Shown here one piece after another: positions 10,310-64,000 of a stretch of 64,000 bases of DNA. The notes below the pieces were generated by a model. It searched no databases. It had not been told where the DNA came from and worked only from the letters and a program-made list of their open reading frames with translations. Every line of letters begins with the position of its first letter. Position 1 is the stretch's first letter. A program made the position numbers and the translations under genes. Location of the stretch: assembly GCA_030429765.1 (NCBI GenBank), contig JAUIER010000003.1, positions 80,402 to 144,401 on the forward strand, written 5' to 3'. This stretch comes from a bacterium. Its GTDB lineage: Bacteria > Omnitrophota > Gorgyraeia > Zapsychrales > Zapsychraceae.

Positions 10310-10833
10310 ATAAATCGTTGAAAGATAAGGCCAAAAAGGTTAAACTGCTAGTTCTCGATGTGGATGGTATCCTTTCGGACGGGAAAATTATCGTCTCCGA
10401 CCAGGGGCATGAGATCAAGCATTTCAATGTCTACGACGGTTTCGGAATTGTCCTGTTCCAGCGACAGGGATTTAAAGTGGCCATCATTTCCGCAAGAGAA
10501 TCGGAAGCGGTGAAAGCTCGCGCCAAGGATCTGAAAATCAGCAGGGTCTATCTCAACGCACGTAACAAACTCAAGGTCTACCAGCGACTTGTCAAAAGCC
10601 TAAAGCTCAGCGACGAGGAAGTATGTTTTATGGGGGACGATTTGCCGGATCTCTCTGTCTTTCAGACAGTGGGCCTGGCGGTGACCGTCCCAAATGCCCG
10701 AGAGGAAATCCGGACGATTGCTCATCATGTTACCAAGACGGCCGGTGGCCAGGGAGCGGTTCGCGAGGTGGTAGAGATGATCCTCAAACACAAAGGGATG
10801 TGGGATTCCGTGGTGAAGGAGTATTCCGTATGA
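10306..10833 (+). CDS. kdsC: Kdo-8-phosphate phosphatase (HAD superfamily)
   Basis: ...VKLLVLDVDGILSDGKI...VYDGFGIVLFQRQGFKVAIISARESEAV...FMGDDLPDL... Confidence 0.88.
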   Translation: MNKSLKDKAKKVKLLVLDVDGILSDGKIIVSDQGHEIKHFNVYDGFGIVLFQRQGFKVAIISARESEAVKARAKDLKISRVYLNARNKLKVYQRLVKSLKLSDEEVCFMGDDLPDLSVFQTVGLAVTVPNAREEIRTIAHHVTKTAGGQGAVREVVEMILKHKGMWDSVVKEYSV

Positions 10834-11657
10834 ATGCACATAGATTTCTGATCGGTTTGATCGCGGTTTTGTTGTCGGCCGGACCAGTTCTGGCGGAGGA
10901 CAATGTGGAACAGCAGTTCCAGGGATTCAATCTTCAGGGGTATACCGACGAGGGCGACAAGGCCTGGGATGTCGAGGGTGATACGGCGGACATCAACGGT
11001 ACAGAAATTACCCTGACCAATGTTGTGGCCAACAGCTATGGCGACCGTCAGATGAACGTGACGGCCGAGATGGGCAAGGTTGATCAGGTCAATGGCCACA
11101 TGCAGCTCGAGAAAGATGTTGTGATCACCAGCGACGACGGGTCCAAACTGATGTCGGACTTTATTGAATGGGACAAAGAGAGCGATACCGTAAGTTCCAG
11201 CGAGGAAGTCTACATCAGGAGCGACGCGTTCAGCGCCACGGGAACAGGCATGAAGGCCCGGCCCGGACTCAAAAGCGCGCAGATCGATAAAGATGTGACC
11301 GTGCGAGTGGAAACCGAAGAGGATACGGAACGGACCAAACAACTGACGGTGAGTAGTGACGGACCGATGATCCTGGACCAGTTGCTGCTCAAGGCCCGGT
11401 TCGAGGTCAACGTTATCGCCGAACAGGACGGTCAAATCCTCAAAGCGGATGTGATCGAGATCTACTTCAAAGAAGGCATGAAGGAAGTTGAGGAAATGAT
11501 CTGTGTGGGCAATGTCGAGATCATTCAGGGCGAGAACAAGACGTATGCCGACAAGGCGACCTATGATGCCGAGGAGCAAAAGCTGGTATTGTCAGGCCGC
11601 CCCAAACTGATTCTGGAAACCGGAGGAGATAGTGGCATTACATCTCTTGGAAACTAA
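10830..11657 (+). CDS. lptA: Periplasmic LPS-transport OstA-like beta-jellyroll protein (LptA-like; unusually long, possibly covering the LptC role)
   Basis: Signal peptide MNAHRFLIGLIAVLLSAGPVLA. C-terminal ...NKTYADKATYDAEEQKLVLSGRPKL is LptA-like. ATG at 10830 overlaps the kdsC stop (ATGA). It lies in the canonical kdsD-kdsC-lptC-lptA-lptB position, but only one gene is present. Confidence 0.65.
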   Translation: MNAHRFLIGLIAVLLSAGPVLAEDNVEQQFQGFNLQGYTDEGDKAWDVEGDTADINGTEITLTNVVANSYGDRQMNVTAEMGKVDQVNGHMQLEKDVVITSDDGSKLMSDFIEWDKESDTVSSSEEVYIRSDAFSATGTGMKARPGLKSAQIDKDVTVRVETEEDTERTKQLTVSSDGPMILDQLLLKARFEVNVIAEQDGQILKADVIEIYFKEGMKEVEEMICVGNVEIIQGENKTYADKATYDAEEQKLVLSGRPKLILETGGDSGITSLGN

Positions 11658-16736: not shown

Positions 16737-18814
<2,078 letters not shown>

Positions 18815-19972: not shown

Positions 19973-20713
19973 ATGAACAAAGATATTGATAAAGGTAAAA
20001 TTCCACAGCATGTCGCCATCATCATGGACGGCAACGGCCGCTGGGCGCAGCAACAGAATCTCTCGCGGACACAGGGGCATATCGCCGGGGTCAAGCGGGT
20101 CGAAGACATTATTGACTATGCGCAGGAGATCGGTATCAAAGTTTTGACACTCTATACGTTCTCATCGGAAAATTGGAACCGCCCGACCAATGAAGTGTCA
20201 ACGATCATGAATATCGTCACGGCCGTGCTTAACAGAAAGACCAAAAAGCTCAAAGGCGATAATATGCGCTTTGGTATGATCGGACGCGAAGACGGGCTGC
20301 CTGAATCGGCCTTGAACGCCATCAAGATGGTCATCAATGAGACCAGCAAGAATACCGGGTTGCTGATCAATCTGGCCTTTAACTACGGGGCCCGGCAGGA
20401 GATCCTCGACGCCATAAAGTCAATTTCCCAATCAGTTAAGGATGGTAAGCTCACGACGGATGATATTACCGAAGAGTTGTTCAGCCGGTCGCTATACACC
20501 AAGGACTTACCGGATCCTGATTTGCTGATTCGGACGTCCGGTGAAAAGCGGATCAGTAATTTTCTTTTGTGGCAATTATCGTATGCGGAGTTCTATTTTA
20601 CAGAGAAATTTTGGCCGGACTTTGATATTGCTGAATTCGAGAACGCACTGATGGATTATCAAAACCGGCAGCGAAGATTTGGTAACTTAATCTCTCAATC
20701 CCTGAATGAATAA
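19973..20713 (+). CDS. uppS: Undecaprenyl-diphosphate synthase (cis-prenyltransferase)
   Basis: ...HVAIIMDGNGRWA... and the ...ERISNFLLWQ...YAEFYF... motifs. Start moved to the ATG at 19973 because the ORF-track start (19931) would place the upstream terminator hairpin inside the gene. Confidence 0.88.
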   Translation: MNKDIDKGKIPQHVAIIMDGNGRWAQQQNLSRTQGHIAGVKRVEDIIDYAQEIGIKVLTLYTFSSENWNRPTNEVSTIMNIVTAVLNRKTKKLKGDNMRFGMIGREDGLPESALNAIKMVINETSKNTGLLINLAFNYGARQEILDAIKSISQSVKDGKLTTDDITEELFSRSLYTKDLPDPDLLIRTSGEKRISNFLLWQLSYAEFYFTEKFWPDFDIAEFENALMDYQNRQRRFGNLISQSLNE

Positions 20714-51243: not shown

Positions 51244-52506
51244 ATGGAAAAACTCGTTATTGAAGGCGGACTCCCGCTTTCCGGTGAAGTCAAAATCAGT
51301 GGATCAAAGAACGCCGCGCTGCCGATTCTCGCAGCCAGTCTTTTGACCGACGAACCCGTCATCCTCCGTAATGTCCCGATTCTGCGCGATACGACGACGA
51401 TGATCAAGCTGCTCAAGTCATTGGGTAAGATCGTTGAGATCGACGGAGACCGCGTCAAGATCACCAGCAACGGCAAGACACGTCACGTGGCGGAATACAA
51501 ACTGGTTTCGACGATGCGCGGTTCGTTTTGTGTACTCGGACCGTTGTTGGCCAAGCTCGGCAAGGCCAAGGTGTCATTGCCCGGCGGGTGTGTGATTGGA
51601 ATCCGTCCGGTCGATCTTCACCTTAAAGGAATAAAGGCGTTGGGCGCCAAGATTCAGATCGACGGCGGATATGTGATTTCCCGCGCCAAGAAGCTCAAGG
51701 GAACGCATATCTATCTCGGCGGAGTGTTTGGATCGTCCGTACTCGCGACGGCGAATGTGCTGATGGCGGCGGTGCTGGCGGAAGGCGAGACCGTGATCGA
51801 GTCGGCGGCGTGTGAACCCGAGATTGAAGATTTGAGCAATATGCTCAGGGCCATGGGCGCGCGTATTCGCGGCGTGGGCTCGCCGCGCTTGACGATTACC
51901 GGCGTAAAACGTTTACGCGGTGTTTCTTATCGCGTCATTCCTGATCGTATTGAAGCGGGAACTTATATTTTGATTGGAGCCGCAACGCGCAGCGATATCA
52001 AACTGCGCGGCGCAGATATCACCCATTTAATGGCGCTGACGGACAAGCTCAAGGAAGTCGGGGTCAAGGTCACGGCCAAGCGCGATGTCGTGAAGGTCAA
52101 ATGTAAAAAGAATTACAACCCGGTGAGTATCACGACGTATCCGTATCCGGGATTTCCGACGGATCTGCAGGCGCAGTTTATGGCGTTGATGACGATTGTC
52201 GAAGGCGTGAGCGTGATCACGGATAAAGTTTATCCGGACCGCTTTATTCACATCGCGGAATTGAATCGCATGGGCGCTAACATCCGCCGCGAAGGGATCA
52301 ACGCGATTGTGCAGGGAGTCAAAAAACTCAAAGGCGCGCAGGTGATGGCGTCGGATCTGCGGGCCTCGGCGGCGCTGGTAATCGCGGGCTTAGCGGCCAA
52401 AGGCCGGACCGAGATTCATCGGATTTACCATTTGGAACGGGGTTACGAATTATTGGATAAGAAATTGACGGCGTTGGGCGCGAAGGTTTGGCGGGAACGG
52501 GAATAG
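51244..52506 (+). CDS. murA: UDP-N-acetylglucosamine 1-carboxyvinyltransferase
   Basis: MEKLVIEGGLPLSGEVKISGSKNAALPILAASLL...LPGGCVIGIRPVDLH... Confidence 0.92.
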   Translation: MEKLVIEGGLPLSGEVKISGSKNAALPILAASLLTDEPVILRNVPILRDTTTMIKLLKSLGKIVEIDGDRVKITSNGKTRHVAEYKLVSTMRGSFCVLGPLLAKLGKAKVSLPGGCVIGIRPVDLHLKGIKALGAKIQIDGGYVISRAKKLKGTHIYLGGVFGSSVLATANVLMAAVLAEGETVIESAACEPEIEDLSNMLRAMGARIRGVGSPRLTITGVKRLRGVSYRVIPDRIEAGTYILIGAATRSDIKLRGADITHLMALTDKLKEVGVKVTAKRDVVKVKCKKNYNPVSITTYPYPGFPTDLQAQFMALMTIVEGVSVITDKVYPDRFIHIAELNRMGANIRREGINAIVQGVKKLKGAQVMASDLRASAALVIAGLAAKGRTEIHRIYHLERGYELLDKKLTALGAKVWRERE

Positions 52507-52527
52507 CGACGAGATAGTGGAGCGCAT

Positions 52528-53091
52528 ATGATCTTAATGATAGACAACTACGATTCATTCACCTACAACCTGGTGCAGTATTTCGGTGAGCTGGGCGCGA
52601 ATCTCAAGGTGTACCGTAATGATATGATTTCGATTGAGGACATCCGCCGGATGCGGCCCAAAAAGATTGTGGTGTCGCCCGGGCCGAGTAATCCGGACCA
52701 TGCCGGGATTTCATTGGACGTCATCGACACGTTTAAAGGCAAGATTCCGATCCTCGGGGTATGTCTCGGACATCAATGTATGGGGCAGGCCTTCGGCGGC
52801 AAGATCATCCGGGCCAAAAAATTGATGCACGGTAAAACTTCAAAAATTAAACACGACGGCCAAGATTTATTCAAAGGCCTGGACAATCCGTTTGAAGCCA
52901 CGCGGTACCATTCGCTGGTGATCGAGCGCAAAAGCTGTCCCAAGTGTTTTGAGATTACGGCCTCGAGTGAAGACGGTGAGATTATGGGGATCCGTCATAA
53001 AGACTATCCGATGTGGGGCGTACAGTTTCATCCCGAGTCGATTTTGACCAAGGCGGGCAAACCGCTCTTGGGTAATTTTCTCAAACTATAG
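52528..53091 (+). CDS. trpG: Anthranilate/aminodeoxychorismate synthase glutamine-amidotransferase component
   Basis: MILMIDNYDSFTYNLVQYFGELG...ILGVCLGHQCMGQAFGG... Confidence 0.85.
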   Translation: MILMIDNYDSFTYNLVQYFGELGANLKVYRNDMISIEDIRRMRPKKIVVSPGPSNPDHAGISLDVIDTFKGKIPILGVCLGHQCMGQAFGGKIIRAKKLMHGKTSKIKHDGQDLFKGLDNPFEATRYHSLVIERKSCPKCFEITASSEDGEIMGIRHKDYPMWGVQFHPESILTKAGKPLLGNFLKL

Positions 53092-53103
53092 GATGGGATC
53101 CAA

Positions 53104-54129
53104 ATGAGCCATACGATTCGTTCATACGTGGACAAGATCCACAATCATGAGAATTTGACGCAGGACGAGATCGAAGTTGTCATGCAGGACATCATGTCCG
53201 GCGAGTCCAACCGCGAAGATATTGCCAGTTTTTTGTTGGCGCTGCGCGAGAAAGGCCCGACGATCGATGAGATTACCGGGGCGGCCCGGATTATGCGCCG
53301 GCATCTGGTCGGCGTGAATACCGTACACAAAGATATTCTTGATACGTGCGGGACCGGCGGTGACAAGACCAATACGTTCAATATCTCGACGGTGACGGCC
53401 CTGGTGGTGGCCGGAGCGGGGGCGGTCGTGGCCAAGCACGGAAATCGGTCGGTGTCGAGTAAGTGCGGTTCGGCCGATATTCTCGAAGCGCTCGATGTCA
53501 ATCTGGATATGGATACCTCCCGTCTGAACGCGTGTCTGGACGAAGTCGGCATCGCTTTTCTGTTTGCGCAAAAACTGCATCCGGCGATGAAGAATGTCGC
53601 GCCTGTGCGTAAGGAATTGGGTGTCGAGACGATCTTTAATCTGCTTGGGCCGTTGACGAATCCGGCCAATGCCACGCATCAGATGATCGGTGTGTACGCG
53701 CGTAAATATGTCAAGCCGATGGTGCAGGTGTTGAAGAACCTGGGATCCAAACGGGCATTGGTTGTGCATGGCGCGGACGGACTGGATGAGATCACAACGA
53801 CCGACAAGACATTTATCTGTGAGTACAACGGCGAGGAGATTTTTTCGTACGATATCGATCCCGACGAATTAGGCATACCGTTCGCCAAGCCTGAAGATCT
53901 CAAAGGCGGTCATCTGGAAGACAATGTCAGAATTGTCCGCGAGATCCTCGACGGAGCGCCCGGACCGAAAAGGGATATCGTTCTGTTGAATTCGGCGTAC
54001 GCGTTGTATATCAGCGAGAAGGCGGCGAATATTGAAGATGGTTTACAGATGGCGCGTGATTCGATCGACAGTGGAAAGGCCAAGGCCAAGCTGGCACAAC
54101 TAAGGGATTTTACCCATGAGCGGACATGA
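53104..54129 (+). CDS. trpD: Anthranilate phosphoribosyltransferase
   Basis: ...[52 protein letters not shown]... Confidence 0.9.
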   Translation: [341 protein letters not shown]

Positions 54130-54907
54130 TTTTCTGCAGGAGATCGTCGAGTACAAAAAAGAATGCAACCGCTTAAAGGCGGAGTACTACACGGCGATTC
54201 GCAACAAGATTGATCTCTCCGAATACTGCCGTTACGGGGTCTTTGCCAAGTCGGTGGGACGCGAAGGGCAGGTTAATCTGATCGCTGAGATCAAGAAGGC
54301 CTCGCCGTCCAAAGGGGTGATCCGTGAGCCGTTTGATGTGCTCGAGATCGCCAAGACATACACCGAACACAAGGCGGCGGCCATCTCTGTTCTCACCGAA
54401 GACAAATATTTTTTAGGACGACCGGATTACGTCAAGAAGGTCAGCGAACAGTTTACGGTGCCGGTCCTGATGAAGGACTTTTTCATTCATGAAAACCAGA
54501 TCTACGAGGCGCTGGTCAAGGGGGCCAGTGCGATCCTGCTGATTTGCGCGATACTCTCCGATGAGCAGTTAAAGCAATTATTGTCGGTGGCGAACGCTTT
54601 GGACCTGGACTGTCTGGTCGAGACGCATGATGAGACCGAGGTCAAGCGGGCGATTGACGTCGGCGCCGAGATCATCGGGGTGAACAATCGCGATCTACAT
54701 ACATTTGAGGTGTCGATGCAGACGAGTCTGGATTTGATCCCCAAGATTCCCCGGGATCGAATCGCGGTCGCCGAGAGCGGGATCCGGACCAACGCGGACA
54801 TTCGGCAGCTCAAAGAGGTGGGGGCCAAGGCGGTTTTAATTGGAGAAACATTTATGCGCGCAGAGGACATCGGCGCCAAGGTTGACGAGATTATGTCAGG
54901 CGGCTAA
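54116..54907 (+). CDS. trpC: Indole-3-glycerol-phosphate synthase
   Basis: ...LIAEIKKASPSKGVI... and ...IIGVNNRDL... Confidence 0.9.
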   Translation: MSGHDFLQEIVEYKKECNRLKAEYYTAIRNKIDLSEYCRYGVFAKSVGREGQVNLIAEIKKASPSKGVIREPFDVLEIAKTYTEHKAAAISVLTEDKYFLGRPDYVKKVSEQFTVPVLMKDFFIHENQIYEALVKGASAILLICAILSDEQLKQLLSVANALDLDCLVETHDETEVKRAIDVGAEIIGVNNRDLHTFEVSMQTSLDLIPKIPRDRIAVAESGIRTNADIRQLKEVGAKAVLIGETFMRAEDIGAKVDEIMSGG

Positions 54908-54922
54908 CACGGAGGAAGAGGA

Positions 54923-55537
54923 ATGACGATGAAAGTTAAGATGTGTGGGATTACCAATCATGAAGACGCGCAGAAGGCGGTTTATTACGGGGCCTATGCC
55001 GTCGGATTTATTTTTCATAAAAAAAGTCCGCGCTACGTATCACCGAGTAAAGCGCGAAAATTAATCGAAGGATTGCCGCCGTTTATCGTGCCGGTCGGTG
55101 TCTTCGTTGATCTCAAGGAAAAGGCGGTGCGGGATATCTGCAAGTTCACCCGGATCAAGACGGTCCAGTTTCACGGTGATGAAAAGCCGATCTACTGCAA
55201 GCGCTTTTCCGATTACAAGATCATCAAGGCCTTTCGGGTCAATGACATGTTTGATTTTGTCGGCGTCAAGAAGTACAAGGTCGACGCCTATCTGTTTGAT
55301 ACCTACCAGGAAAATGTCCTTGGGGGGACGGGAAAGACGTTCAACTGGGACCTGCTCAAAGGGCATAAGTTTGATAAACCCGTCATTCTCTCCGGCGGAT
55401 TGACCTCATCCAATGTGGCCGAAGGGATCGCCGCGGTGGATCCGTACGCCGTGGATGTCTCCAGCGGCATCGAGAAGTCGCCGGGGATCAAGGATCCCCG
55501 CAAAATCCGGGCGTTCATGAAGGCCCTGGACGTCTAA
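54923..55537 (+). CDS. trpF: Phosphoribosylanthranilate isomerase
   Basis: MTMKVKMCGITNHEDAQKAVYYGAYAVGFIFHKKSPRYV... Confidence 0.88.
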   Translation: MTMKVKMCGITNHEDAQKAVYYGAYAVGFIFHKKSPRYVSPSKARKLIEGLPPFIVPVGVFVDLKEKAVRDICKFTRIKTVQFHGDEKPIYCKRFSDYKIIKAFRVNDMFDFVGVKKYKVDAYLFDTYQENVLGGTGKTFNWDLLKGHKFDKPVILSGGLTSSNVAEGIAAVDPYAVDVSSGIEKSPGIKDPRKIRAFMKALDV

Positions 55538-55659: not shown

Positions 55660-55687
55660 TTGTCCCCTGTGGATAACTATGTTATAT
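55660..55687 (+). promoter_or_regulatory. Candidate promoter positioned to start the ncRNA candidate
   Basis: TTGTCC (55660-55665), 16-nt spacer, TTATAT (55682-55687). The predicted +1 is about 55694-55696, exactly where the 12-nt closing-stem arm begins. Confidence 0.4.
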
Positions 55688-55694
55688 TTGAATT

Positions 55695-55927
55695 AAGCCG
55701 ATAAAGGTAAACCCGGGGAAACCCGGGGACTTTCGAGTCTTACCGACTTGGAACTGCGCGGTTATGAGGCGCGCGGACAAAACCAACAGACCTAAATTGT
55801 TAACGACTACGAGGCCCGTTCGGGCGTTCAGCGCCGGGGCACACAATCCAAGCAGAAGAGTCTAGGACAAGATGGTGGCTGGGTTGCCGAAGTGCGGTGA
55901 GGGAGACATCCTCATCTTTATCGGCTT
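55695..55927 (+). ncRNA. Structured non-coding RNA candidate of unknown class (about 233-nt core closed by a 12-bp helix)
   Basis: 5' AAGCCGATAAAG (55695-55706) is perfectly complementary to CTTTATCGGCTT (55916-55927). The interior is rich in local hairpins (CGCGG-ttatgagg-CGCGCG, GCCCG-ttc-GGGC, GGCG-ttcag-CGCC, TGAGG-gagacat-CCTCA) and carries a duplicated ACCCGGGGA. No ORF of meaningful length covers it. It is bracketed by a candidate promoter and an intrinsic terminator. Confidence 0.5.
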
Positions 55928-55946
55928 ATTTTTCTCTCTTACCCAT

Positions 55947-55978
55947 ACCGTAAAAACACCCGTTTTTGCGGTTTTTTT
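55947..55978 (+). terminator. Rho-independent terminator downstream of the ncRNA candidate
   Basis: CCGTAAAAAC-accc-GTTTTTGCGG stem followed by TTTTTTTGTG. Confidence 0.65.
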
Positions 55979-56105
55979 GTGTCTACGGTGTTGGTTCTGG
56001 TAGAATAGTAGGAATTAACTGCGCGGGGCTTCACGAACTTCCAATCCTGCAGCAGTTTTTCCAGTGTGATTAAGCAAGCAAAATTAAGAAATATTTCGAT
56101 TGTAA

Positions 56106-56492
56106 ATGACTAACAATTCAATATTTTCATTTCCTCCTGATTTTGAAGTGGAGTATAAATTTTTGACAGTGGACGAGGCCGGTAGAAAAACTGGAACTCC
56201 CTTTCAGGGTTACCGGAGCAATTGGCTATATGAAGGGGATGACCCAATTGCCGACGGCATTTATATGATTCATCCTGAATTTCTGGATGAAGACGGAAAA
56301 AGTTTTCAAAAGAATAGGAAGGTTCCTGCAAAAGGCCTGGCCAGAATGGTAGTAGTCAATCCAGCTAAGAGACCTTATCATCAAAAGAAAATAAAAGTTG
56401 GAACAAGAGGTTTTTTTGTCGAGGGAAATCGGAAAGTGGCAATGGCAACCGTAACGAAGGTGCTTGGTTTGCATACCAATAAAACAACTTAG
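56106..56492 (+). CDS. Hypothetical protein (128 aa) in AT-rich islet
   Basis: ORF MTNNSIFSFPPDFEVEYKFLTVDEAGRKTG... with no recognisable motif. Local AT-richness differs from the flanks. Confidence 0.4.
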   Translation: MTNNSIFSFPPDFEVEYKFLTVDEAGRKTGTPFQGYRSNWLYEGDDPIADGIYMIHPEFLDEDGKSFQKNRKVPAKGLARMVVVNPAKRPYHQKKIKVGTRGFFVEGNRKVAMATVTKVLGLHTNKTT

Positions 56493-56542
56493 TAGAAAAT
56501 TCTCATTCCATAACAGGGATAGGATTTTTCAAAGATAATTGA

Positions 56543-57247
56543 ATGACGTATATTAGAATTTTTGCCTTGGTGCTTAGCGTTATTTTAACGGCCGGGTGTG
56601 CTACCGTTGTTCGGGATCAATTACCGGCAGTCCAAAAATTTTCGACATCTGAGGAAGCTTTCAGCGTATACGTGCTGAATCATGGATGGCATACAGGACT
56701 GGTGATCAGGCGTTCTGATATCCCTGACCATCTTTGTCCCGAAAGTGAAGATTTTGCTAAGTATGAGTATCTCGAAATTGGATGGGGCGATCAAGGTTTT
56801 TACCAGGCTCAGAAAATCACTTTGGGTATTACTATCCGGGCGATCTTTTGGCCGTCCAAAAGCGTACTACATGTGGTGGGATTTAATGGGTCAGTTGAGG
56901 CATATTTTGAAACCAGTGATATTGTACGAGTTGATCTTTCGGAACAGGGATTTAACAAAATATGCATGTTTATTCATGAAACGTTCAAGAGGGAGCAGGT
57001 TGATCTACGAGCTTCGTCTATCGGACCGGGTTTGTACGGGGATAGTAAATTCTACAGAGCTCGCGGGAGATACTACTTTCCTAAAACGTGTAATGTTTGG
57101 ACCGCAAGGGCCCTACGTAAAGGTGGTTGTCCGATAACACCTATTTACGCTGTGACATCCGGCAATACGCTGAATCAGACCAAGAAGTTTGGAGTAATTG
57201 TTAGGGAGTTCCTAGAGTCGTATAAAGCTTCAGGTAGAAAAAAATAA
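56543..57247 (+). CDS. Lipoprotein of unknown function (DUF2459-like)
   Basis: Lipobox ...LTAGC; ...NHGWHTGLVI... motif; 234 aa; AT-rich codon usage like the neighbouring ORF. Confidence 0.5.
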   Translation: MTYIRIFALVLSVILTAGCATVVRDQLPAVQKFSTSEEAFSVYVLNHGWHTGLVIRRSDIPDHLCPESEDFAKYEYLEIGWGDQGFYQAQKITLGITIRAIFWPSKSVLHVVGFNGSVEAYFETSDIVRVDLSEQGFNKICMFIHETFKREQVDLRASSIGPGLYGDSKFYRARGRYYFPKTCNVWTARALRKGGCPITPIYAVTSGNTLNQTKKFGVIVREFLESYKASGRKK

Positions 57248-57398
57248 GTGGATGGTCGAAGTCTCTCCAATCTTGAAAGAATTGGTATCAGAAATCCCTA
57301 AAGTAAAGCAGGGCATAAGTTTAGGTCGTAATTCATTATATTAGCGAAGAGGCCTGTCCCTTTTCGGGGACTGTCCCCTTTGGGGGAGCCGTTCGGGC

Positions 57399-57427
57399 TT
57401 GCCTATAATACTAATATATCGTATAAT
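57399..57427 (+). promoter_or_regulatory. Candidate sigma70 promoter for the giant ORF
   Basis: TTGCCT (57399-57404), 17 nt, TATAAT (57422-57427), about 50 nt upstream of the ATG at 57478. Preceded by overlapping alternative hairpins (57354-57386). Confidence 0.45.
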
Positions 57428-57477
57428 TAGTGTATTACTGGTTCCCCACCGTAAGCTTTAGTTTCCACCCATAGTCT

Positions 57478-60400
57478 ATGTTGATTTCAATCAAACGGCA
57501 TTTCCGTCATCCGTTGTTTTGCGCGTTGGTGTCGATGCTGACATGTCAGTTATCATTTGCTGTCCCTGGCGTTGCGTCTACGCAAGCCTCGCAGGGAGTG
57601 GCTCTGCCTGAACCCGGCACGCTGGTGATGCCGAGCGCCGATTTTTATGCCCCGGTCCTCAAAGGGGTTCAAATCCATCCCGACCAGCCGTTTCATTTTG
57701 AATTTATTGTCGATCAGGGCGATCAGTCGATTTCCTTAAGCCAACTGGAGGCCGAGTCGTATCGCTTGATCAAATATTTTATGGCCGCCCTGGCCGTGCC
57801 TGAGCAGGACATGTGGGTGAACTTATCGCCCAATGATCATGATCGGGCGATCCCCGACAAATTCGCCCTGACCGCTATGGGACGTGATCTGCTCGCGCAG
57901 GATTATCTGCTCAAACAATTATCGGCGTCGATGATGTATCCCGAACATCGGCTTGGTGAAGATTTCTGGCAACGCGTGCGGCACTTGGCCCATCAACGCT
58001 TGGGCGTGACCGACATTCCCGTCAACACATTCAATAAAGTCTGGATCGTACCCGAACGGGCCGTGGTGTATCAAGACGGATATACCGCGTATGTGTCCGA
58101 AGGCCGGCTCAAGGTCATGCTGCAGTCGGACTATCAAGCCAGCGCATCCAGCCCGATGGGCGCGGGCAATCCCGACGATTCCACCGACCGGTTAGCCCAG
58201 GACATTTATCGTGAAGTGATTATTCCGGAACTGGAGCGAGAGGTGAATACCGGTCGACAGTTTGCCCGTTTGCGCCAGATCTATCATTCGTTGATTCTCG
58301 CGACGTGGTATCGCGAAGTCCTTGAGGACAGTTTGATCAATCAAGTGTATGCCGGACAGAATAAGATCCATGGCATTGAGATCGACGATCCCCGGGCCAA
58401 AGACGCGATCTATCAGCAATACATGGACGCGTTTCGCAAGGGCGTCTACAACTACATCCGCGAAGACTATGATCAATTGAAGGATCAGGTGATCCCGCGG
58501 CAGTACATGTCGGGCGGGATGCAGATCGTGCCGCGGATAGAGATTACCGACGACGCGCGCTCCGTCCGCACGCGCGGAGATCTGGCGATGGTCTCCACGC
58601 AACTGAATCTGCGCGGTGCCAACCGCACGATTGAGATCGCGGCGGATCTCGACGACAGTATCTTTGCCGGGATGCGAAAGAACGGCCGGCCCAAGGTTCA
58701 GTTAACGCATGCGGATCACGCCGAGCTCAAGGGATACCGTCCGGATGGAGAGACGGTCACACTTTTTACCTCACTACGTCAGCGGGTATACGGCCTGGAA
58801 ATTTCCGATGAGGGCGAACTCACGCACGTTTATCCTAACAATAAAAAAGACAAACCGGTGGCTTGGGCCTGGATTCGTGACGACGCCGGCCGGCGGACCG
58901 GAATTGTCGTCGGAGACAAGCGGACGCACGCGTCGCTGGGATACGGAACAAGTGCGGTCAAGATTAACGGGTGGATCGACACGCCGATTATAGCAAGTCA
59001 GCAGCGGCAGGACGCGGCCTTGATCCGCATCGGTCCACAGGCCCTGGGTAAACGACAACTCTTTGCGGTGTTGCCGCCGGATGCGGCCGGCGAAACATTG
59101 GCGGTGCGCTATGAAGACGGTTTTCCGACGGCAGTTCGTCTGAGAGACGGGACCGTTGTTCCTGTTGGTCTGATCCGGAATCAGTATAATCAGGTGATCA
59201 AAGCCACGAACGGTTCGGCCGGTTTTGTTAAGCCGGATCGTGAGACAGCCACCAGCTACGAAAATATCCGAACGGATGCAGAGGGCATAGCGCGTTTGGG
59301 ATTCCGTCTCGAGCGAGTGGCCGACGGGGCCGGCTGGGCCAGTCTCCTGGTTGACCAATCAGTGGTGATCGCTCATGATATTTTTGATCAGCCGCGTCAC
59401 CAAACCTACGGACACGTGATCCGCAATCACCATGATGTCATCATTGCCGCCGCGTGGCGGGAACCCGACCAAGACCAACGGGAGGTAAACCCCAAGCCGT
59501 TGATGATCGTTCGCGATCTCCAAACACACCGGCCGAAGTACTCGGCGGCACCAACCAAATTCAAAGACACCGGCGACGCGATCGTGACCGGACGTCGTTT
59601 ATCGAAACACGGCAAGATTTATATCGGCGGACATTCGCTGAGTTTGGGGGCGACGTATGCCGATGCGCCGGTGGAATTGCTATGGCTGCCCAGCCAGGGT
59701 TATCTGCTGGTCGATGTCTTAAGTGAACGTGATCGTGAGGCGTTTGTGTTTGACTTGAATCGTGACGAAACCGTCACCGCCGAACAGCTAACTCTCGTCG
59801 ACAAATACCTGTCTGAGCTTGGGCTGGAATGGTATCTGGATCCGGCAGAGAAGGCGTATCGTTATGATCTCATCAATGAGTTGATGTCGGATCCGTTGTT
59901 CGCACAGCTGAATTTAAGATTATTTTCAACGCATCCGGCGGATTTACAGACCATTCAGTCTCAGTTGACTGTGCGCCGTCACATGCCGGTCAGGATTTGG
60001 GATCAGGCCCTGGATATCGCCGCCCGACGGATCGATCAATATAAACGCGATTATCCCGATCAGGTCGTCAACGGCAAGATTCCGATGCGGATCAAGCAGT
60101 CGATCATTCGCGATGTGTCGGACGAGGCCTGGTTGATGATCAATGCCGAACGTCCGCTGACGGAGAGCCCATCGGCTCAAATCTTTGAATCGTCGTCAAA
60201 CGAAACCGATGCGGCCATGACCAGCGATGGACCCACGCGGGCTGATATCGAACGGCTGTTCAAGGCGATTCTGGAAATTTACCGGTCCTACGCCGACGGT
60301 GAATTGGAGGACTATCCCACGGCGATGCGCCGGCTGGAGGCATTGGCCGAGCAGACCGCGTCGAATCCGGTCCTGCAGAGTTTTGTCCATGACCGGAAGA

Positions 60401-63400
60401 ATCCCATCCACGTGATTGAGTTCGGACTGGATGGTCAGTTGGTGGCGCGCGATAAGCTCGCGCAGTCCCTTCAGGATGACATCCGCGATATGGAGCTGGC
60501 CCTGGCCGGACTTCGATCGCTCGACGACACCGACCCCGCCCCGGTGACGGATGCGTATCCGGCCGAGATCAAATATTTTGAGTTAATCAATAAAGGACGC
60601 GGTTCGACGGATTCAGATGCCGCGATGGCGGGTATCGATACTTTTGTGGCTGAGCGGATCACACAATTGCAGGACGCGGTGACGGAACGTGAACAGGTGA
60701 CACCCAACACGGTTCGGCATGTCGCGGGGCTTTGGCTAAAAGCCCTCATCCAGGAGTGGGATTACGGCCGGAACATCGTTCACACACGGGCCGAGGCCGT
60801 CGAGATAGGGGAACGCCTGAACCGGGCGTGGAAGGCCGCCGGGTTCGACAAGGTTCGTTCATGGCCGGCGCAGGTGATGCTCATGGGCTCTCTGCAGGTT
60901 TCGGAAGACAAGTACTTTCAATTTGAAGATATGCAGGAGGCCTTGATCGAACATGCCACGCGGGAGGAAAAGATCTTGGCTTACTGGACCAAGGCGGTGC
61001 GCTCTGTCAGTCATCTCAGATATTACGGCAATCATCCGGAAGATGAATTTGAGGATCCGCTCGTCGATCAAACCGTCATTCAGGATACGGCGCGCAAATA
61101 CATCACCTTGCTGCTGGAAGACGCGCCCGAGAAGGCCACTCAAGATCAGCTGTGGGGATTGATCGTTTTGCTCGATCCGTTCATCTATCATCCTGACTTT
61201 TTAATTGATCAGTGGGCCAAGCATGCCTATAAGCAACCCAACGATCATGTCATGACCGCCAAGGTCCTCGACATTCTGAAGGATCTCAACGCGGAACAGC
61301 GGCAGCGATTCCAACAACTCGCCCGACGGGCGTTTGCGATATCGGATGACGAATGGGCGGCGGCTGGATTCCGGTCGCCGTACACAGACTTTATCATCCA
61401 TACCTTTAATGAACGACTGGACCACATGATGACTCAGATGTCGATCAAGTCCTCGAGTGAGTTCAGCGGGGATCACGTGCAGCTGATGGCCCGGTCCGAA
61501 GAATTTTTCGACGCCCATGTGGGATGGTATGCCTTAACGCGCGATCCCAGGGCGGTGCGCGAGATGATGTTCTCCAATAAACGGCATGCCCGTTATCCGG
61601 AGGCCGGTTTTCTGGGGCTGCGTCAGGCCATCGTCAAACGGCGATTGTTCAAGGCGATGGAACAAGATCCGCGGCATTACTATCGACGGGTCTTCGCGCA
61701 TCCATTGCTGGCGGATTCACCTAACTGGGGATTTTTAAGTGAGTTGTTGAGCGACGAGGCGATGATGGCCGATCCCGATGATATGACCGAACAGTTCCGT
61801 CGACGAATTGATCTAGCCATTGCTCAGGTGGGTTATCCTGGAATATCTGTATCCGAACAGGCTGCTCAAGATTTGCTTGCTGACTATGAACAGGGTTTTG
61901 ACGTGACGGAACGGATTGCCATTCCACGGATCAGCGTCTGGCTGATGCGTCACCAGATTCCTGTGTTTCAGTCTTATGAAATGCTAGCGGCCATCCACGT
62001 CGCCGCCGACAAGTGGCGAGCCAATTTCAATCAGACAGTGGAGCTTGAGGTTGGTGCCTTGATGAGCTTTACGAATGTGGTGGGGCTACCGATGTTTGGA
62101 TTTGAAGGATCGTGGACAGATGCGGAAGTGCAGACCGTTCGACGGATTATGGGGTGGTTGGATGGGGAAAAAGTCTCTACATTGAAAGGGTTGCAAGCTC
62201 GATTGTTGACATCTTCGGTAACATTTAAAAAGCGCGGCAGGGGATTCAGAGGCATTGCGGAGATCATACAAGGGATCATGCCGGCCGGTCCCCGTATACC
62301 TGGCGATAGACGCACAAACGCGATTCAGCTCGTCGACATTGATACAAGCTGGTTTACAGGGAATATCACATTCCCGATGATTCAGATTCTCAAGGAATTA
62401 TTGCTGGATCGGACGCAGGACAAGGATGTCATTGATGAAGACTACTTTGACTCACGAATTGCGGTGTTGGCCAAGATACAAGAGTTGTTAGAGCGGCTTG
62501 TCCTTCGGGAGCAGTCATTAATTGAAAACTTTGCGACAGCCTATCGCGCGCAATTGCAGGAAGAGCGTAGAACGTTGTTGTATACATGGCTGACCATGAT
62601 GCGCGGTGACGAAGAAATTTTAGATCTGGAACCTGATGATTTGTCGCACAGATTTACACTTTCAACGGATGATGTTTTGAAGGTATTAAGAGATTACTCT
62701 GAAGAGATCGATGACCGAGATCACGCGATGAAAGCCGGTGAGGCGTTTGAGAACAATCCGTATCATGAACCGCATTTTGATCTGATTGACAATCTGGAAC
62801 TGGCCGAGCGGTCGAATATCGTGATGATCGGGGCGGCGGAAAATCCGCAGGCCGGTTTGGCCTTCGCGATGCGCGGACATCATGTCAGGTCCATCACCAA
62901 GGATATCAAGGGGCCGACCGTGGAGGCGGCGCTGCAGGAGTCACTTGAGGCCGATATTTCCGGTCGGGGCGGACGGTATGTCACCAATCGGGAGACCGAC
63001 TATCTGGATGTCGACATCGACGCCGAATCGGTGGATGTGTATGTGGTGCCGGCGGTGCTCGACGATCCGCGCACCGTGCAGCAGGATTTGATGCTGGATA
63101 AAATGCTGCGCGAATTGCGGCCGGGCGGTCATCTGGTGCTGTCGTTTATCATCAATGCGTCGGGATGGGAGCGCTATGTCGAGCGGTTCGCGGCGTCACG
63201 CGGGTTTGAACTGGAGAAGACGTATGATTATACCGTGTCGGACGCGGCGGTGATCTATCGCGTTGTGCCGGATGCGGCCAGACAGCTGGCCGCCATGGCG
63301 TCGGAGATCGGCGCGGCCAATGATGAGGCCATGCTGGCGTTCAGTGAGTTTGACAACAAGATCGGGATCGATCCATTTTCCGGTCGTTTATCGGTGCTGT

Positions 63401-64000
63401 CCGATGAGCCGGTGTTTGTGCCGGCGTTTGAGTTATGGGCGGTGCGTCACGGTGAGACCGCCGGTAATGTTCAGCGCATCTTTCAAGGGGCGACGGACAC
63501 GTCGATCAATCAGTTGAATCAACGCGGACGCGAGCAGGCCGCAGAAGCGGCGCGCCTGATGTTTGAACAGCTCGAGGCCAAACTCAGGGCCGGTGATCAC
63601 GTTGTTATATTGACCAGTGAGTTCGCGCGGGCGAAAGAGACGGCGCAGGCCTTTGTGGATTTTGTTGAGGCTCAATTGGGGGATGCATCGAACTTAACCA
63701 TCGTCGAAGATGCCGGGGTCAATGAGATTGATTTCGGCGAACTCAACAATCTGTCCGAACAGGATGAGTTAACGGATCGTCAGCGCACGTTTATCGATCA
63801 GTATCGGTATCAGAAAAACGCGCGCGCGAAACCGGCCGGCGGCGAAAGCTATCTGGAATTGACCCAGCGGGTCCACCGATGGCTCAAAGAATTGAATCAG
63901 CGCTACGCGGACCAAACCGTGGTGATGTTTGGTCACGGTACATTTTTATCGGCCGTTCGGATGTTGACGGGGGATACGTCGATGAACGACGCCAGCGGTC
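57478..64000 (+). CDS. Giant secreted multidomain protein, 5' partial (at least 2174 codons, continues past the window end). The C-terminal visible part has a degenerate SAM-methyltransferase-like Rossmann region and a histidine-phosphatase (PGM/SixA branch) domain
   Basis: Reading frame 57478+3n contains no stop codon to nt 64000, verified by reading codon by codon. An in-frame TAG at 57472-57474 lies immediately upstream of the ATG. N-terminus MLISIKRHFRHPLFCALVSMLTCQLSFAVPGVASTQA is a signal peptide. Residues ...NIVMIGAAENPQAGLAFAMRGHHVRSI... and ...LRPGGHLVLSFI... (about 62.8-63.15 kb) resemble class-I MTase motifs I and III. ...ELWAVRHGETAGN... (63.44 kb) and ...VVMFGHGTFLSAV... (63.93 kb) are the RHGE and HG catalytic motifs of histidine phosphatases. 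It is absent from the supplied ORF track because no stop occurs in the window. Confidence 0.8.
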   Translation, partial: MLISIKRHFRHPLFCALVSMLTCQLSFAVPGVASTQASQGVALPEPGTLVMPSADFYAPVLKGVQIHPDQPFHFEFIVDQGDQSISLSQLEAESYRLIKYFMAALAVPEQDMWVNLSPNDHDRAIPDKFALTAMGRDLLAQDYLLKQLSASMMYPEHRLGEDFWQRVRHLAHQRLGVTDIPVNTFNKVWIVPERAVVYQDGYTAYVSEGRLKVMLQSDYQASASSPMGAGNPDDSTDRLAQDIYREVIIPELEREVNTGRQFARLRQIYHSLILATWYREVLEDSLINQVYAGQNKIHGIEIDDPRAKDAIYQQYMDAFRKGVYNYIREDYDQLKDQVIPRQYMSGGMQIVPRIEITDDARSVRTRGDLAMVSTQLNLRGANRTIEIAADLDDSIFAGMRKNGRPKVQLTHADHAELKGYRPDGETVTLFTSLRQRVYGLEISDEGELTHVYPNNKKDKPVAWAWIRDDAGRRTGIVVGDKRTHASLGYGTSAVKINGWIDTPIIASQQRQDAALIRIGPQALGKRQLFAVLPPDAAGETLAVRYEDGFPTAVRLRDGTVVPVGLIRNQYNQVIKATNGSAGFVKPDRETATSYENIRTDAEGIARLGFRLERVADGAGWASLLVDQSVVIAHDIFDQPRHQTYGHVIRNHHDVIIAAAWREPDQDQREVNPKPLMIVRDLQTHRPKYSAAPTKFKDTGDAIVTGRRLSKHGKIYIGGHSLSLGATYADAPVELLWLPSQGYLLVDVLSERDREAFVFDLNRDETVTAEQLTLVDKYLSELGLEWYLDPAEKAYRYDLINELMSDPLFAQLNLRLFSTHPADLQTIQSQLTVRRHMPVRIWDQALDIAARRIDQYKRDYPDQVVNGKIPMRIKQSIIRDVSDEAWLMINAERPLTESPSAQIFESSSNETDAAMTSDGPTRADIERLFKAILEIYRSYADGELEDYPTAMRRLEALAEQTASNPVLQSFVHDRKNPIHVIEFGLDGQLVARDKLAQSLQDDIRDMELALAGLRSLDDTDPAPVTDAYPAEIKYFELINKGRGSTDSDAAMAGIDTFVAERITQLQDAVTEREQVTPNTVRHVAGLWLKALIQEWDYGRNIVHTRAEAVEIGERLNRAWKAAGFDKVRSWPAQVMLMGSLQVSEDKYFQFEDMQEALIEHATREEKILAYWTKAVRSVSHLRYYGNHPEDEFEDPLVDQTVIQDTARKYITLLLEDAPEKATQDQLWGLIVLLDPFIYHPDFLIDQWAKHAYKQPNDHVMTAKVLDILKDLNAEQRQRFQQLARRAFAISDDEWAAAGFRSPYTDFIIHTFNERLDHMMTQMSIKSSSEFSGDHVQLMARSEEFFDAHVGWYALTRDPRAVREMMFSNKRHARYPEAGFLGLRQAIVKRRLFKAMEQDPRHYYRRVFAHPLLADSPNWGFLSELLSDEAMMADPDDMTEQFRRRIDLAIAQVGYPGISVSEQAAQDLLADYEQGFDVTERIAIPRISVWLMRHQIPVFQSYEMLAAIHVAADKWRANFNQTVELEVGALMSFTNVVGLPMFGFEGSWTDAEVQTVRRIMGWLDGEKVSTLKGLQARLLTSSVTFKKRGRGFRGIAEIIQGIMPAGPRIPGDRRTNAIQLVDIDTSWFTGNITFPMIQILKELLLDRTQDKDVIDEDYFDSRIAVLAKIQELLERLVLREQSLIENFATAYRAQLQEERRTLLYTWLTMMRGDEEILDLEPDDLSHRFTLSTDDVLKVLRDYSEEIDDRDHAMKAGEAFENNPYHEPHFDLIDNLELAERSNIVMIGAAENPQAGLAFAMRGHHVRSITKDIKGPTVEAALQESLEADISGRGGRYVTNRETDYLDVDIDAESVDVYVVPAVLDDPRTVQQDLMLDKMLRELRPGGHLVLSFIINASGWERYVERFAASRGFELEKTYDYTVSDAAVIYRVVPDAARQLAAMASEIGAANDEAMLAFSEFDNKIGIDPFSGRLSVLSDEPVFVPAFELWAVRHGETAGNVQRIFQGATDTSINQLNQRGREQAAEAARLMFEQLEAKLRAGDHVVILTSEFARAKETAQAFVDFVEAQLGDASNLTIVEDAGVNEIDFGELNNLSEQDELTDRQRTFIDQYRYQKNARAKPAGGESYLELTQRVHRWLKELNQRYADQTVVMFGHGTFLSAVRMLTGDTSMNDASG

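Follow-up and report, generated by a model that had tools for sequence, protein, structure and literature searches.

INTRODUCTION

The two described systems that stand closest to the RNA analyzed here both carry a c-di-GMP-I (GEMM-I) riboswitch aptamer, the sensor for cyclic di-GMP (c-di-GMP). In the Bc1 riboswitch of Bacillus thuringiensis, this aptamer is followed by a dual terminator, of which the first unfolds with c-di-GMP while the second stays intact and masks the response, an arrangement that its authors describe as rarely seen (PMC11218506). In Bdellovibrio bacteriovorus, the c-di-GMP riboswitch RNA merRNA is expressed at massive levels, lacks a conserved downstream open reading frame (ORF), and has been proposed to act as a store of the ligand (PMC3627812). 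Here, we examine a noncoding, strongly folding RNA at positions 55695 to 55978 of a 64,000-nt stretch of a Candidatus Omnitrophota genome (the window), where it is bordered by a promoter-like site and an intrinsic terminator; all of its features lie on the + strand. An earlier note, made from the letters of the window alone, had described it as a structured RNA of unknown class closed by a perfect 12-bp helix. Our analysis indicates that the RNA is almost certainly a c-di-GMP-I aptamer and that its 12-bp helix, well supported as the ligand-free alternative structure, likely serves as a regulated terminator.

The locus resembles Bc1 in having, behind the aptamer, a pair of intrinsic terminators (T1 and T2) a few tens of nucleotides apart, both predicted here, with T1 ligand-sensitive and T2 independent of the ligand. 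However, T1 of Bc1 is a local hairpin in a long expression platform, whereas T1 of this RNA would be a long-range helix between its 5′ and 3′ parts, and the two systems belong to different phyla (Bacillota and Omnitrophota). With merRNA, it shares a c-di-GMP-I aptamer in a discrete, independently transcribed noncoding RNA, here by virtue of a predicted promoter. In contrast, merRNA is 445 nt long and owes its status to measured expression, whereas the present RNA is known from sequence and, in nearly all related loci, has a same-strand gene within ~60 to 260 nt.

RESULTS AND DISCUSSION

Homologues and class of the RNA

Close copies of the RNA lie at L002:6703-6936 and L003:4851-5084 (related loci are numbered with an L), in the two metagenome-assembled genomes with the most similar TrpF proteins. 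DNA around TrpF proteins of 68 to 82% identity was searched with nhmmer profiles, which returned more distant copies, on the same strand and downstream of trpF, at L011/L012, L014/L015, L016, L017, L018, and L019. The profile of the window clade matches L011 at E = 5.7e-31 and 1.8e-7, in two segments that flank the insertion described below. The orthologues carry the class assignment: against the Rfam model RF01051 (c-di-GMP-I; gathering score, 35 bits), L017, L016, L019, L011, and L018 score 72.3, 72.1, 63.0, 59.9, and 57.3 bits, respectively, and L014 scores 61.5 bits against RF03167 (c-di-GMP-I-GGC). These are full-length model matches, each with a 65- to 73-nt insertion in the P3 loop.

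The window copy itself has no match to Rfam at gathering thresholds, which counts against the assignment. At E ≤ 10, it shows partial matches to the c-di-GMP-I clan (CL00126), one of 25.2 bits at 55697–55748, to RF03167, and one of 11 bits at 55757–55892. We attribute the low score to insertion penalties, since the window copy has a 46-nt insertion in the P2 internal loop and an extension of ~66 nt in P3. A locus of the same architecture, with an insertion at the same site and a P3 extension (L068), passes Rfam at 42.5 bits, and the homologues form a continuous series from the window copy to compact matches of 77 to 80 bits to the 87-nt model. By homology and conserved features, the RNA is thus assigned to the c-di-GMP-I class with little doubt. 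The "class unknown" of the earlier note, and with it the suggestion of a novel small RNA (sRNA), gives way to orthologue scores of 57 to 72 bits; its alternative, a long 5′ leader or riboswitch, names the correct type of RNA. The Rfam scan that it had proposed as a check leaves the window copy below gathering, although the orthologues are hit with confidence, so that novelty fails for the family as a whole.

The reading preferred in that note, a new class of sRNA or housekeeping RNA with a superficial likeness to GEMM-I, could draw on the missing match at the gathering threshold and on a size of ~233 nt and paired ends that resemble those of stable RNAs. Set against the continuous homologue series, the orthologues that pass Rfam, and the lack of any Rfam similarity to 6S, RNase P, signal recognition particle (SRP), or transfer-messenger (tmRNA) RNAs even at E ≤ 10, it is exceedingly improbable; that note, too, had read those four signatures as absent.

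Other known classes were also considered and rejected. Rfam gave no support at E ≤ 10 for T-box, lysine, or cobalamin riboswitches, as for 6S, RNase P, SRP, and tmRNA. The string GAGGCGCGC, which had been likened to a lysine riboswitch element, sits in a clade-specific inserted hairpin (55754–55776) that is missing from most orthologues. The trpB motif (RF04312), which in Firmicutes and Fusobacteria precedes trpB or transporter genes and consists of two hairpins, with a terminator as the second (PMC11109978), matched at 55896–55983 with 28.5 bits (E = 0.079; threshold, 59), a score that comes mainly from T2, and the phylum does not fit. An aromatic amino acid riboswitch, a candidate from the trpF synteny (in L016/L017 the RNA lies upstream of DAHP synthase), was dropped because the Rfam matches gave the class.

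Within the clan, RF03167 is the best model for the 5′ half of the window copy, for L014, and for L055. Its consensus has a G (GC-G-AA) where the window family has an A (AC-A-AA), as in canonical RF01051, so that the pocket should be of the canonical c-di-GMP type. This A and the G in the G20 position both predict c-di-GMP rather than cyclic GMP-AMP (cGAMP) as the ligand. The L018 contig holds two further compact c-di-GMP-I-GGC matches with their own terminators, at 16820–16897 and 20065–20142 (64.8 and 67.6 bits), one of them upstream of an NHL-repeat protein, so that more than one c-di-GMP riboswitch is present in these genomes.

Borders and folding of the RNA

The promoter-like site (55660–55688) consists of a −35 TTGTCC, a 17-nt spacer, and a TG-extended −10 TATATT, with a predicted +1 at ~55695, the first base of the 5′ arm of the helix, just as the earlier note had placed it. 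Its TGnTATAnnT core is kept in nine of nine aligned orthologues, and we infer that it works as a sigma-70-type promoter. The 284-nt stretch has a predicted fold of −106.9 kcal/mol (z = −4.3), matched by none of 200 shuffled sequences, in the shape of a multi-branch junction. No credible ORF lies within it: the longest frames are 43 and 54 aa, and relatives vary by indels that are not multiples of three, which rules out coding potential and bears out the noncoding character claimed before.

The 12-bp helix is also real as a sequence feature. The arms AAGCCGATAAAG (55695–55706) and CTTTATCGGCTT (55916–55927) are exact reverse complements over 12 nt, or 16 nt at 94% when extended, and are the only two matches in the window at up to one mismatch, where 0.29 would be expected by chance. 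T2, a canonical intrinsic terminator (55947–55979) with an 11-bp stem (55947–55972), a 4-nt loop, and a T-run, was reported earlier as well, although it begins 19 rather than 20 nt after the helix. A U-rich run directly 3′ of the helix (55926–55938) had been left out of that first list of elements.

Architecture of the aptamer

The sensor as a whole spans 55697–55892 and adopts the c-di-GMP-I fold. As in RF01051, for example in Vc2 of Vibrio cholerae, it would form a three-helix junction in which a GAAA-capped P2 docks on an 11-nt-type receptor in P3, with equivalents of G20, A47, and C92. The junction strings AAAGGYAAAC, GAC-RC-AAA, and GCUGRGUUGCCGAA are also those of RF01051. It differs in the 46-nt insertion in the P2 internal loop, the P3 extension of ~66 nt, and a P1 of only 2 to 4 bp. 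By alignment of the orthologues to the Rfam consensus, and with a putative mapping of the Vc2 crystal-structure numbers onto that consensus, the contact positions correspond to G55707, A55780, and C55887.

The 5′ arm of the helix (55695–55706) also supplies the P1 5′ strand (C55699, G55700) and J1/2 (55701–55706); in the orthologues, it aligns to positions 1 to 10 of RF03167/RF01051. P2 (55707–55730) opens with G55707, the G20 equivalent, and T55708, followed by an AAA strand, a stem (55712–55717/55722–55727) capped by GAAA (55718–55721), and GAC (55728–55730), so that a GNRA-capped P2 lies between the AAA and GAC strands of an internal loop (55709–55730). This stem covaries among relatives. 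What had been taken for a duplicated ACCCGGGGA is indeed present in the sequence, as the two sides of one palindromic 6-bp hairpin, CCCGGG-GAAA-CCCGGG (55712–55727). After the insertion, the segment at 55777–55800 holds the P2-closing AC (55777–55778), AA with A55780, AACC (55781–55784), CAGACC (55787–55792), the receptor strand TAAA (55793–55796), and TTGT (55797–55800), which together form the P2 closure, J2/3, and the P3 5′ strand. The AACC/GGTT helix shows one compensatory change from C-G to U-A.

The P3 extension (55801–55866) takes up ~66 nt in place of a consensus loop of 3 to 4 nt, with nested GAC(T)/(A)GTC and GGCCC.../...GGGC pairings; across 21 relatives, it has a conserved nested-helix consensus fold, with some compensatory pairs. 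The P3 3′ strand and aptamer end (55867–55892) follow, with ACAA, the receptor GAT, GGT, a GG bulge, CTGGGTT, GCCGAAG, C55887, and the P1 nucleotides C55888-G55889. The receptor reads CCTAAA (55791–55796)/GATGG (55871–55875) in the window and CCUAAG/UAUGG in the orthologues, where the strands align to the CUAAg/uAuG columns of RF01051; the orthologue version is the classical 11-nt receptor. By these alignments, no conserved element is missing from the window copy: besides the receptor, it has J1/2 and P2 (GAUAAAGGUAAAC, the 6-bp stem, GAAA, and GAC), the AC-AA-AACC junction, and the 3′ strand GGUGGCUGGGUUGCCGAAG. A 21-mer, ATGGTRGCTGRGTTGCCGAAG, is invariant in nine of nine orthologues and served as the probe of a metagenome scan, which returned 103 loci.

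Between aptamer and tail lies a spacer hairpin (GAGGG-AGACA-TCCTC; 55899–55913) whose stem sequence differs in L018 and L019 with pairing kept, and which is replaced by structured inserts of 50 to 90 nt in L014, L016, and L017. An alternative GCCG-AAGUG-CGGU hairpin (55886–55898) was discarded; it is not conserved (L011, L019) and would consume C92 and P1 nucleotides.

The 46-nt insertion (55731–55776) consists of two hairpins (55731–55753 and 55754–55776) and stands immediately before the closing AC. Both hairpins are absent from all of the more distant copies (L011, L014, and L016–L019), which makes them an insertion of the window clade. Because it falls between the P2 internal loop and the P2-closing pair, 2 nt from the A47 equivalent, and because the window copy scores below the Rfam gathering score, the window riboswitch might be taken for a decaying relic, disabled beside its pocket. 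We regard this as highly improbable. The core of the window copy is 100% identical to L002/L003 over 37 and 43 nt while the flanks have diverged, and in both inserted hairpins the sequence has changed with the pairing kept by compensatory changes, which together indicate that the window copy is under selection. All consensus contact positions are retained, and two hairpins have also been inserted here in unrelated lineages, some of which pass Rfam (L068, L091, L099, and L120).

The 12-bp helix as an alternative pairing

The 5′ arm of the helix is the aptamer's own 5′ end, comprising the P1 5′ strand and J1/2 and reaching the base of P2. Since these are model positions 1 to 10, the helix is incompatible with the ligand-bound pocket. 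The earlier note had taken the helix to close the RNA; its pairs lie outside the sensor fold and compete with the sensor instead. The 3′ arm, or tail (55916–55927), lies 23 nt beyond the aptamer.

The competing pairing is widespread in the family and under selection. Among 80 nonredundant loci with both flanks available, a duplex between the 5′ strand and the tail of −15 kcal/mol or better is present in 65, and it also occurs in loci with a compact aptamer. Shuffled controls reach this level in 0.25% of cases, and the 130 nt that follow never do. The 10-bp core of the helix is ~100% paired across related loci, and 17 tested helix pairs are paired in 79.7% of cases, against 29 to 48% in slid-register controls. 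Where the 5′ strand changes, the tail compensates (GCCG.../...CGGC to ACCG.../...CGGT; AAAG/CTTT to AAGG/CCTT; GATA/TATC to GAAA/TTTC), so that pairs change from G-C to A-U, A-U to G-C, and U-A to A-U; in the L023-type lineage, GAUA/UAUC has become GACA/UGUU (U-A to C-G). The tails were picked by similarity, which biases the figures toward pairing; this bias does not affect the double changes. The comparison of homologues that had been suggested for this RNA shows copies at the trpF loci of relatives and compensatory changes in the helix, P2, and the inserted hairpins. That the arm is almost invariant can be understood because the ligand pocket fixes the 5′ strand and the tail must follow it. 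Taken as the ligand-free alternative structure, the helix is well supported.

Nearest-neighbor energies favor the closed form over the secondary structure of the aptamer by 21.5 kcal/mol, and any decision by the ligand must therefore be kinetic. Slow ligand off-rates are a feature of the c-di-GMP-I class. The class binds its ligand with a KD of ~1 nM (cited in PMC3627812), which fits such kinetic control.

A further inverted repeat, CAAAACCAACA (55778–55788)/TGTTGGTTCTG (55989–55999), with 10 of 11 positions complementary, would join the J2/3-P3 strand to the region past T2. It was set aside, as it is near chance level and absent from L002/L003.

Two predicted terminators and the proposed switch

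The U-rich run TTATTTTTCTCTC (55926–55938) and the helix make up the proposed ligand-controlled terminator T1. In 71 loci, the 9 nt after the tail hold a mean of 6.1 T compared with 2.5 in flanking controls, and at least six T are found there in 70% of loci compared with 4% of controls. The strongest U-runs occur in loci without a second terminator (L014, L016, L017, L020, and others). We read T1 as an intrinsic terminator because the GC-rich base of the helix adjoins the U-run, with the whole aptamer as the loop; on these grounds, the closing helix is likely a regulated terminator. The platform would differ from that of RF01051 in pairing the 5′ rather than the 3′ side of the aptamer with the tail, which puts the whole aptamer inside the terminator stem.

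We therefore favor, with reasonable but incomplete confidence, a c-di-GMP-I riboswitch in which the helix is the expression platform and c-di-GMP an ON signal for read-through. The RNA's own promoter would start transcription with the first nucleotide of the 12-nt arm, and c-di-GMP would be gripped at the junction by the equivalents of G20, A47, and C92. If c-di-GMP is bound during transcription, the 5′ strand would be locked in the pocket, the tail left free, and the polymerase would pass the U-run. If it is not, the tail would capture the 5′ strand, and the resulting helix of 12 to 14 bp, with the whole aptamer as the terminator loop, would terminate transcription in the U-run at ~55930–55938. 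Read-through would head for the downstream genes, here an islet and a giant protein and ancestrally a cysteine-rich protein of ~100 aa, and T2, 19 nt after the helix, would limit or modify its output.

Several observations weigh against this switch. (i) Of the 71 related loci, 53 have a second terminator, and T2 is retained in folds of the isolated post-aptamer segment (window, L011, L018, and L019), so that in the models T2 forms whatever the aptamer state and transcripts that pass T1 may never reach a gene; by analogy with Bc1, T2 may mask the response. (ii) A terminator stem whose arms lie ~210 nt apart is unorthodox, and the tail of some compact relatives could instead fold into a small local hairpin just ahead of that U-run; such a hairpin might cause termination with or without the ligand. 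(iii) The RNA is missing from the L013 locus, where TrpF is 79% identical, and orthologous loci vary in the genes that come next after the RNA. (iv) In many related loci, the next gene starts 7 to 10 nt past a TGnTATAAT box without a Shine-Dalgarno sequence (e.g., L028, L041, L055, L083, and L096; L014:11080-11104 has the same arrangement of box and start codon), as would be expected of a leaderless mRNA made from a separate promoter. Separately, a role of the tail as antiterminator of T2 was rejected; T2 is intact in the isolated segment, and hand-built pairings between tail and T2 are weak and not conserved.

At the L013 locus (10640–11400), the promoter-like TATGGTATATTTGAAG is kept, and after it come two small ORFs, of 112 and 99 aa, which resemble a toxin-antitoxin pair.

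Downstream genes and the question of autonomy

A same-strand ORF follows the riboswitch in 73 of 79 loci. The recurrent downstream families are glycoside hydrolase family 1 (GH1) beta-glucosidase, a cysteine-rich protein of ~100 aa, another of 93 aa, and giant proteins, and there are at least three or four paralogous groups of the RNA, each tied to a particular downstream gene family (the GH1 enzyme, the ~100-aa protein, and the 93-aa protein among them). In the orthologous group of the window, the ancestral neighbor is the ~100-aa protein (L014), and the giant gene (window, L011/L012) or other genes were inserted later between it and the RNA. Such recurrent gene association favors cis-regulation, and the second terminator and separate promoters favor some autonomy.

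The fullest form of autonomy would be a c-di-GMP-binding sRNA that is complete in itself and controls no read-through, acting as a store or sponge of the ligand or exposing its tail only in a ligand-bound long isoform. A strong-looking promoter of its own and two terminators would suit such an RNA, as would the independence of T2 from the aptamer state, the promoter-like box at the start codon of many next genes, the variation of downstream genes among orthologues with new genes inserted after the unit, and the precedent of the Bdellovibrio merRNA (PMC3627812). However, the full-length RNA at equilibrium strongly favors the closed, nonbinding form, a poor design for a sponge; the paralogous groups tied to gene families follow a pattern typical of cis-regulators; and no conserved seed was seen outside the tail. 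The same-strand ORF in 73 of 79 loci also speaks against a merRNA-like RNA, a point weakened by strand bias: all plausible genes of the window lie on the + strand (1–57250), and a same-strand downstream gene is accordingly weaker evidence for cis-regulation. On balance, we consider an autonomous sRNA of this kind unlikely. A broader version, in which an autonomous c-di-GMP-gated unit conserved across the Omnitrophota yields either a short closed RNA that stops at T1 or a longer one that extends to T2 and leaves its tail exposed, with a trans-acting or ligand-storing RNA or promoter occlusion as the output, also appears rather improbable.

Occlusion taken by itself would mean transcriptional interference, whereby a c-di-GMP-dependent run of the polymerase from T1, well upstream, to T2, which adjoins or overlaps the next promoter, occludes that promoter and represses the gene behind it, in many cases a leaderless one. 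Loci of the GH1 group have the 3′ arm of T2 (TTGGGA) 17 to 19 nt upstream of TATAAT, where a −35 element would be, and the start codon follows 7 to 10 nt after the box. In the window, a possible next promoter (TTGTGT, 18-nt spacer, TG-extended TAGAAT; 55977–56006) overlaps the end of T2, although this weak candidate falls below the scan criteria. The overlap of T2 and promoter is mainly found in one orthologous group, however; loci of the ~100-aa-protein group either have ~80 to 100 nt between T2 and the next TATAAT or lack T2. As the idea is entirely inferential and the literature searched gave no precedent, we hold interference to be very unlikely, and the c-di-GMP-I riboswitch with read-through control remains the preferred explanation.

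The ~100-aa cysteine-rich protein (L014:11102-11401, L012:13150-13452, and L019:17854-18156; 48 to 53% identity between loci) is the commonest gene after a riboswitch of the window type and is usually followed by an M20/M28 peptidase. A domain search with it gave only a sub-threshold match to a double zinc ribbon.

Expansions of the aptamer

The family is built from recurring modules: a compact aptamer, a P3 extension of 65 to 94 nt, two hairpins in the P2 5′ strand, and one or two hairpins at the site used in the window. Insertions of one or two hairpins at that site occur in other lineages as well (L045, L068, L085/90, L091, L099, and L120). Rfam scores drop with expansion, from 77 to 80 bits for compact aptamers to 38.6 to 52 bits for those with an insertion in the P2 region, with or without a P3 extension, and the doubly expanded L002, L045, and L085 have no Rfam match.

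Genomic context

Upstream of the RNA lie aroA, trpG, trpD, trpC, and trpF (51244–55537), with trpF ending at 55537, just before the riboswitch; the tryptophan genes are split. The TrpF protein is 86 to 87% identical to proteins of two metagenome-assembled genomes of Candidatus Omnitrophota, and further TrpF homologues carry the same label. In L011, a PALP-domain protein (L011:19625-20615), possibly trpB (assigned at the family level only), is encoded only farther on, with the giant gene, a peptidase gene, and an ORF of 307 aa in between.

Downstream, an islet (56000–57400) with a GC content of 39 to 45%, compared with ~52 to 55% in its surroundings, encodes a DUF2459 protein and a 128-aa ORF of no assigned family. 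The islet is missing from L002/L003, where the giant gene begins ~110 nt past the RNA's terminator, and resembles a recent insertion that has separated the giant gene from the riboswitch unit. The giant open frame (57475–64000, + strand) runs past the end of the window and encodes more than 2175 aa of a surface-type protein, with no Pfam match in its first 1483 aa. Over the N-terminal ~400 aa, it shares 52% identity with a protein of 1933 aa that L011 encodes in this position; at the equivalent position in L013 is a protein of more than 6139 aa rich in WD40/beta-propeller repeats. No reverse transcriptase or other partner gene was found near the RNA, and a retron msr/msd or similar RNA with flanking inverted repeats was rejected on that ground.

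Implications

What is new here are the expansions that hide the RNA from Rfam and the proposed nested-aptamer, dual-terminator platform, which is conserved across many Omnitrophota loci. Current understanding of riboswitches is not overturned, and the placement of the aptamer inside the terminator stem would explain a near-invariant 12-bp helix. Hairpin insertions are tolerated in or beside P2, 2 nt from the ligand-intercalating adenine, together with long P3 extensions, and these expansions may be useful for thinking about the peripheral tuning of a tight, kinetically controlled aptamer. Because Rfam misses the doubly expanded aptamers, the c-di-GMP regulons of the Omnitrophota are likely under-annotated. 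For this uncultured phylum, the family would link c-di-GMP signaling to giant surface-type proteins, GH1 beta-glucosidase, and a small cysteine-rich protein.

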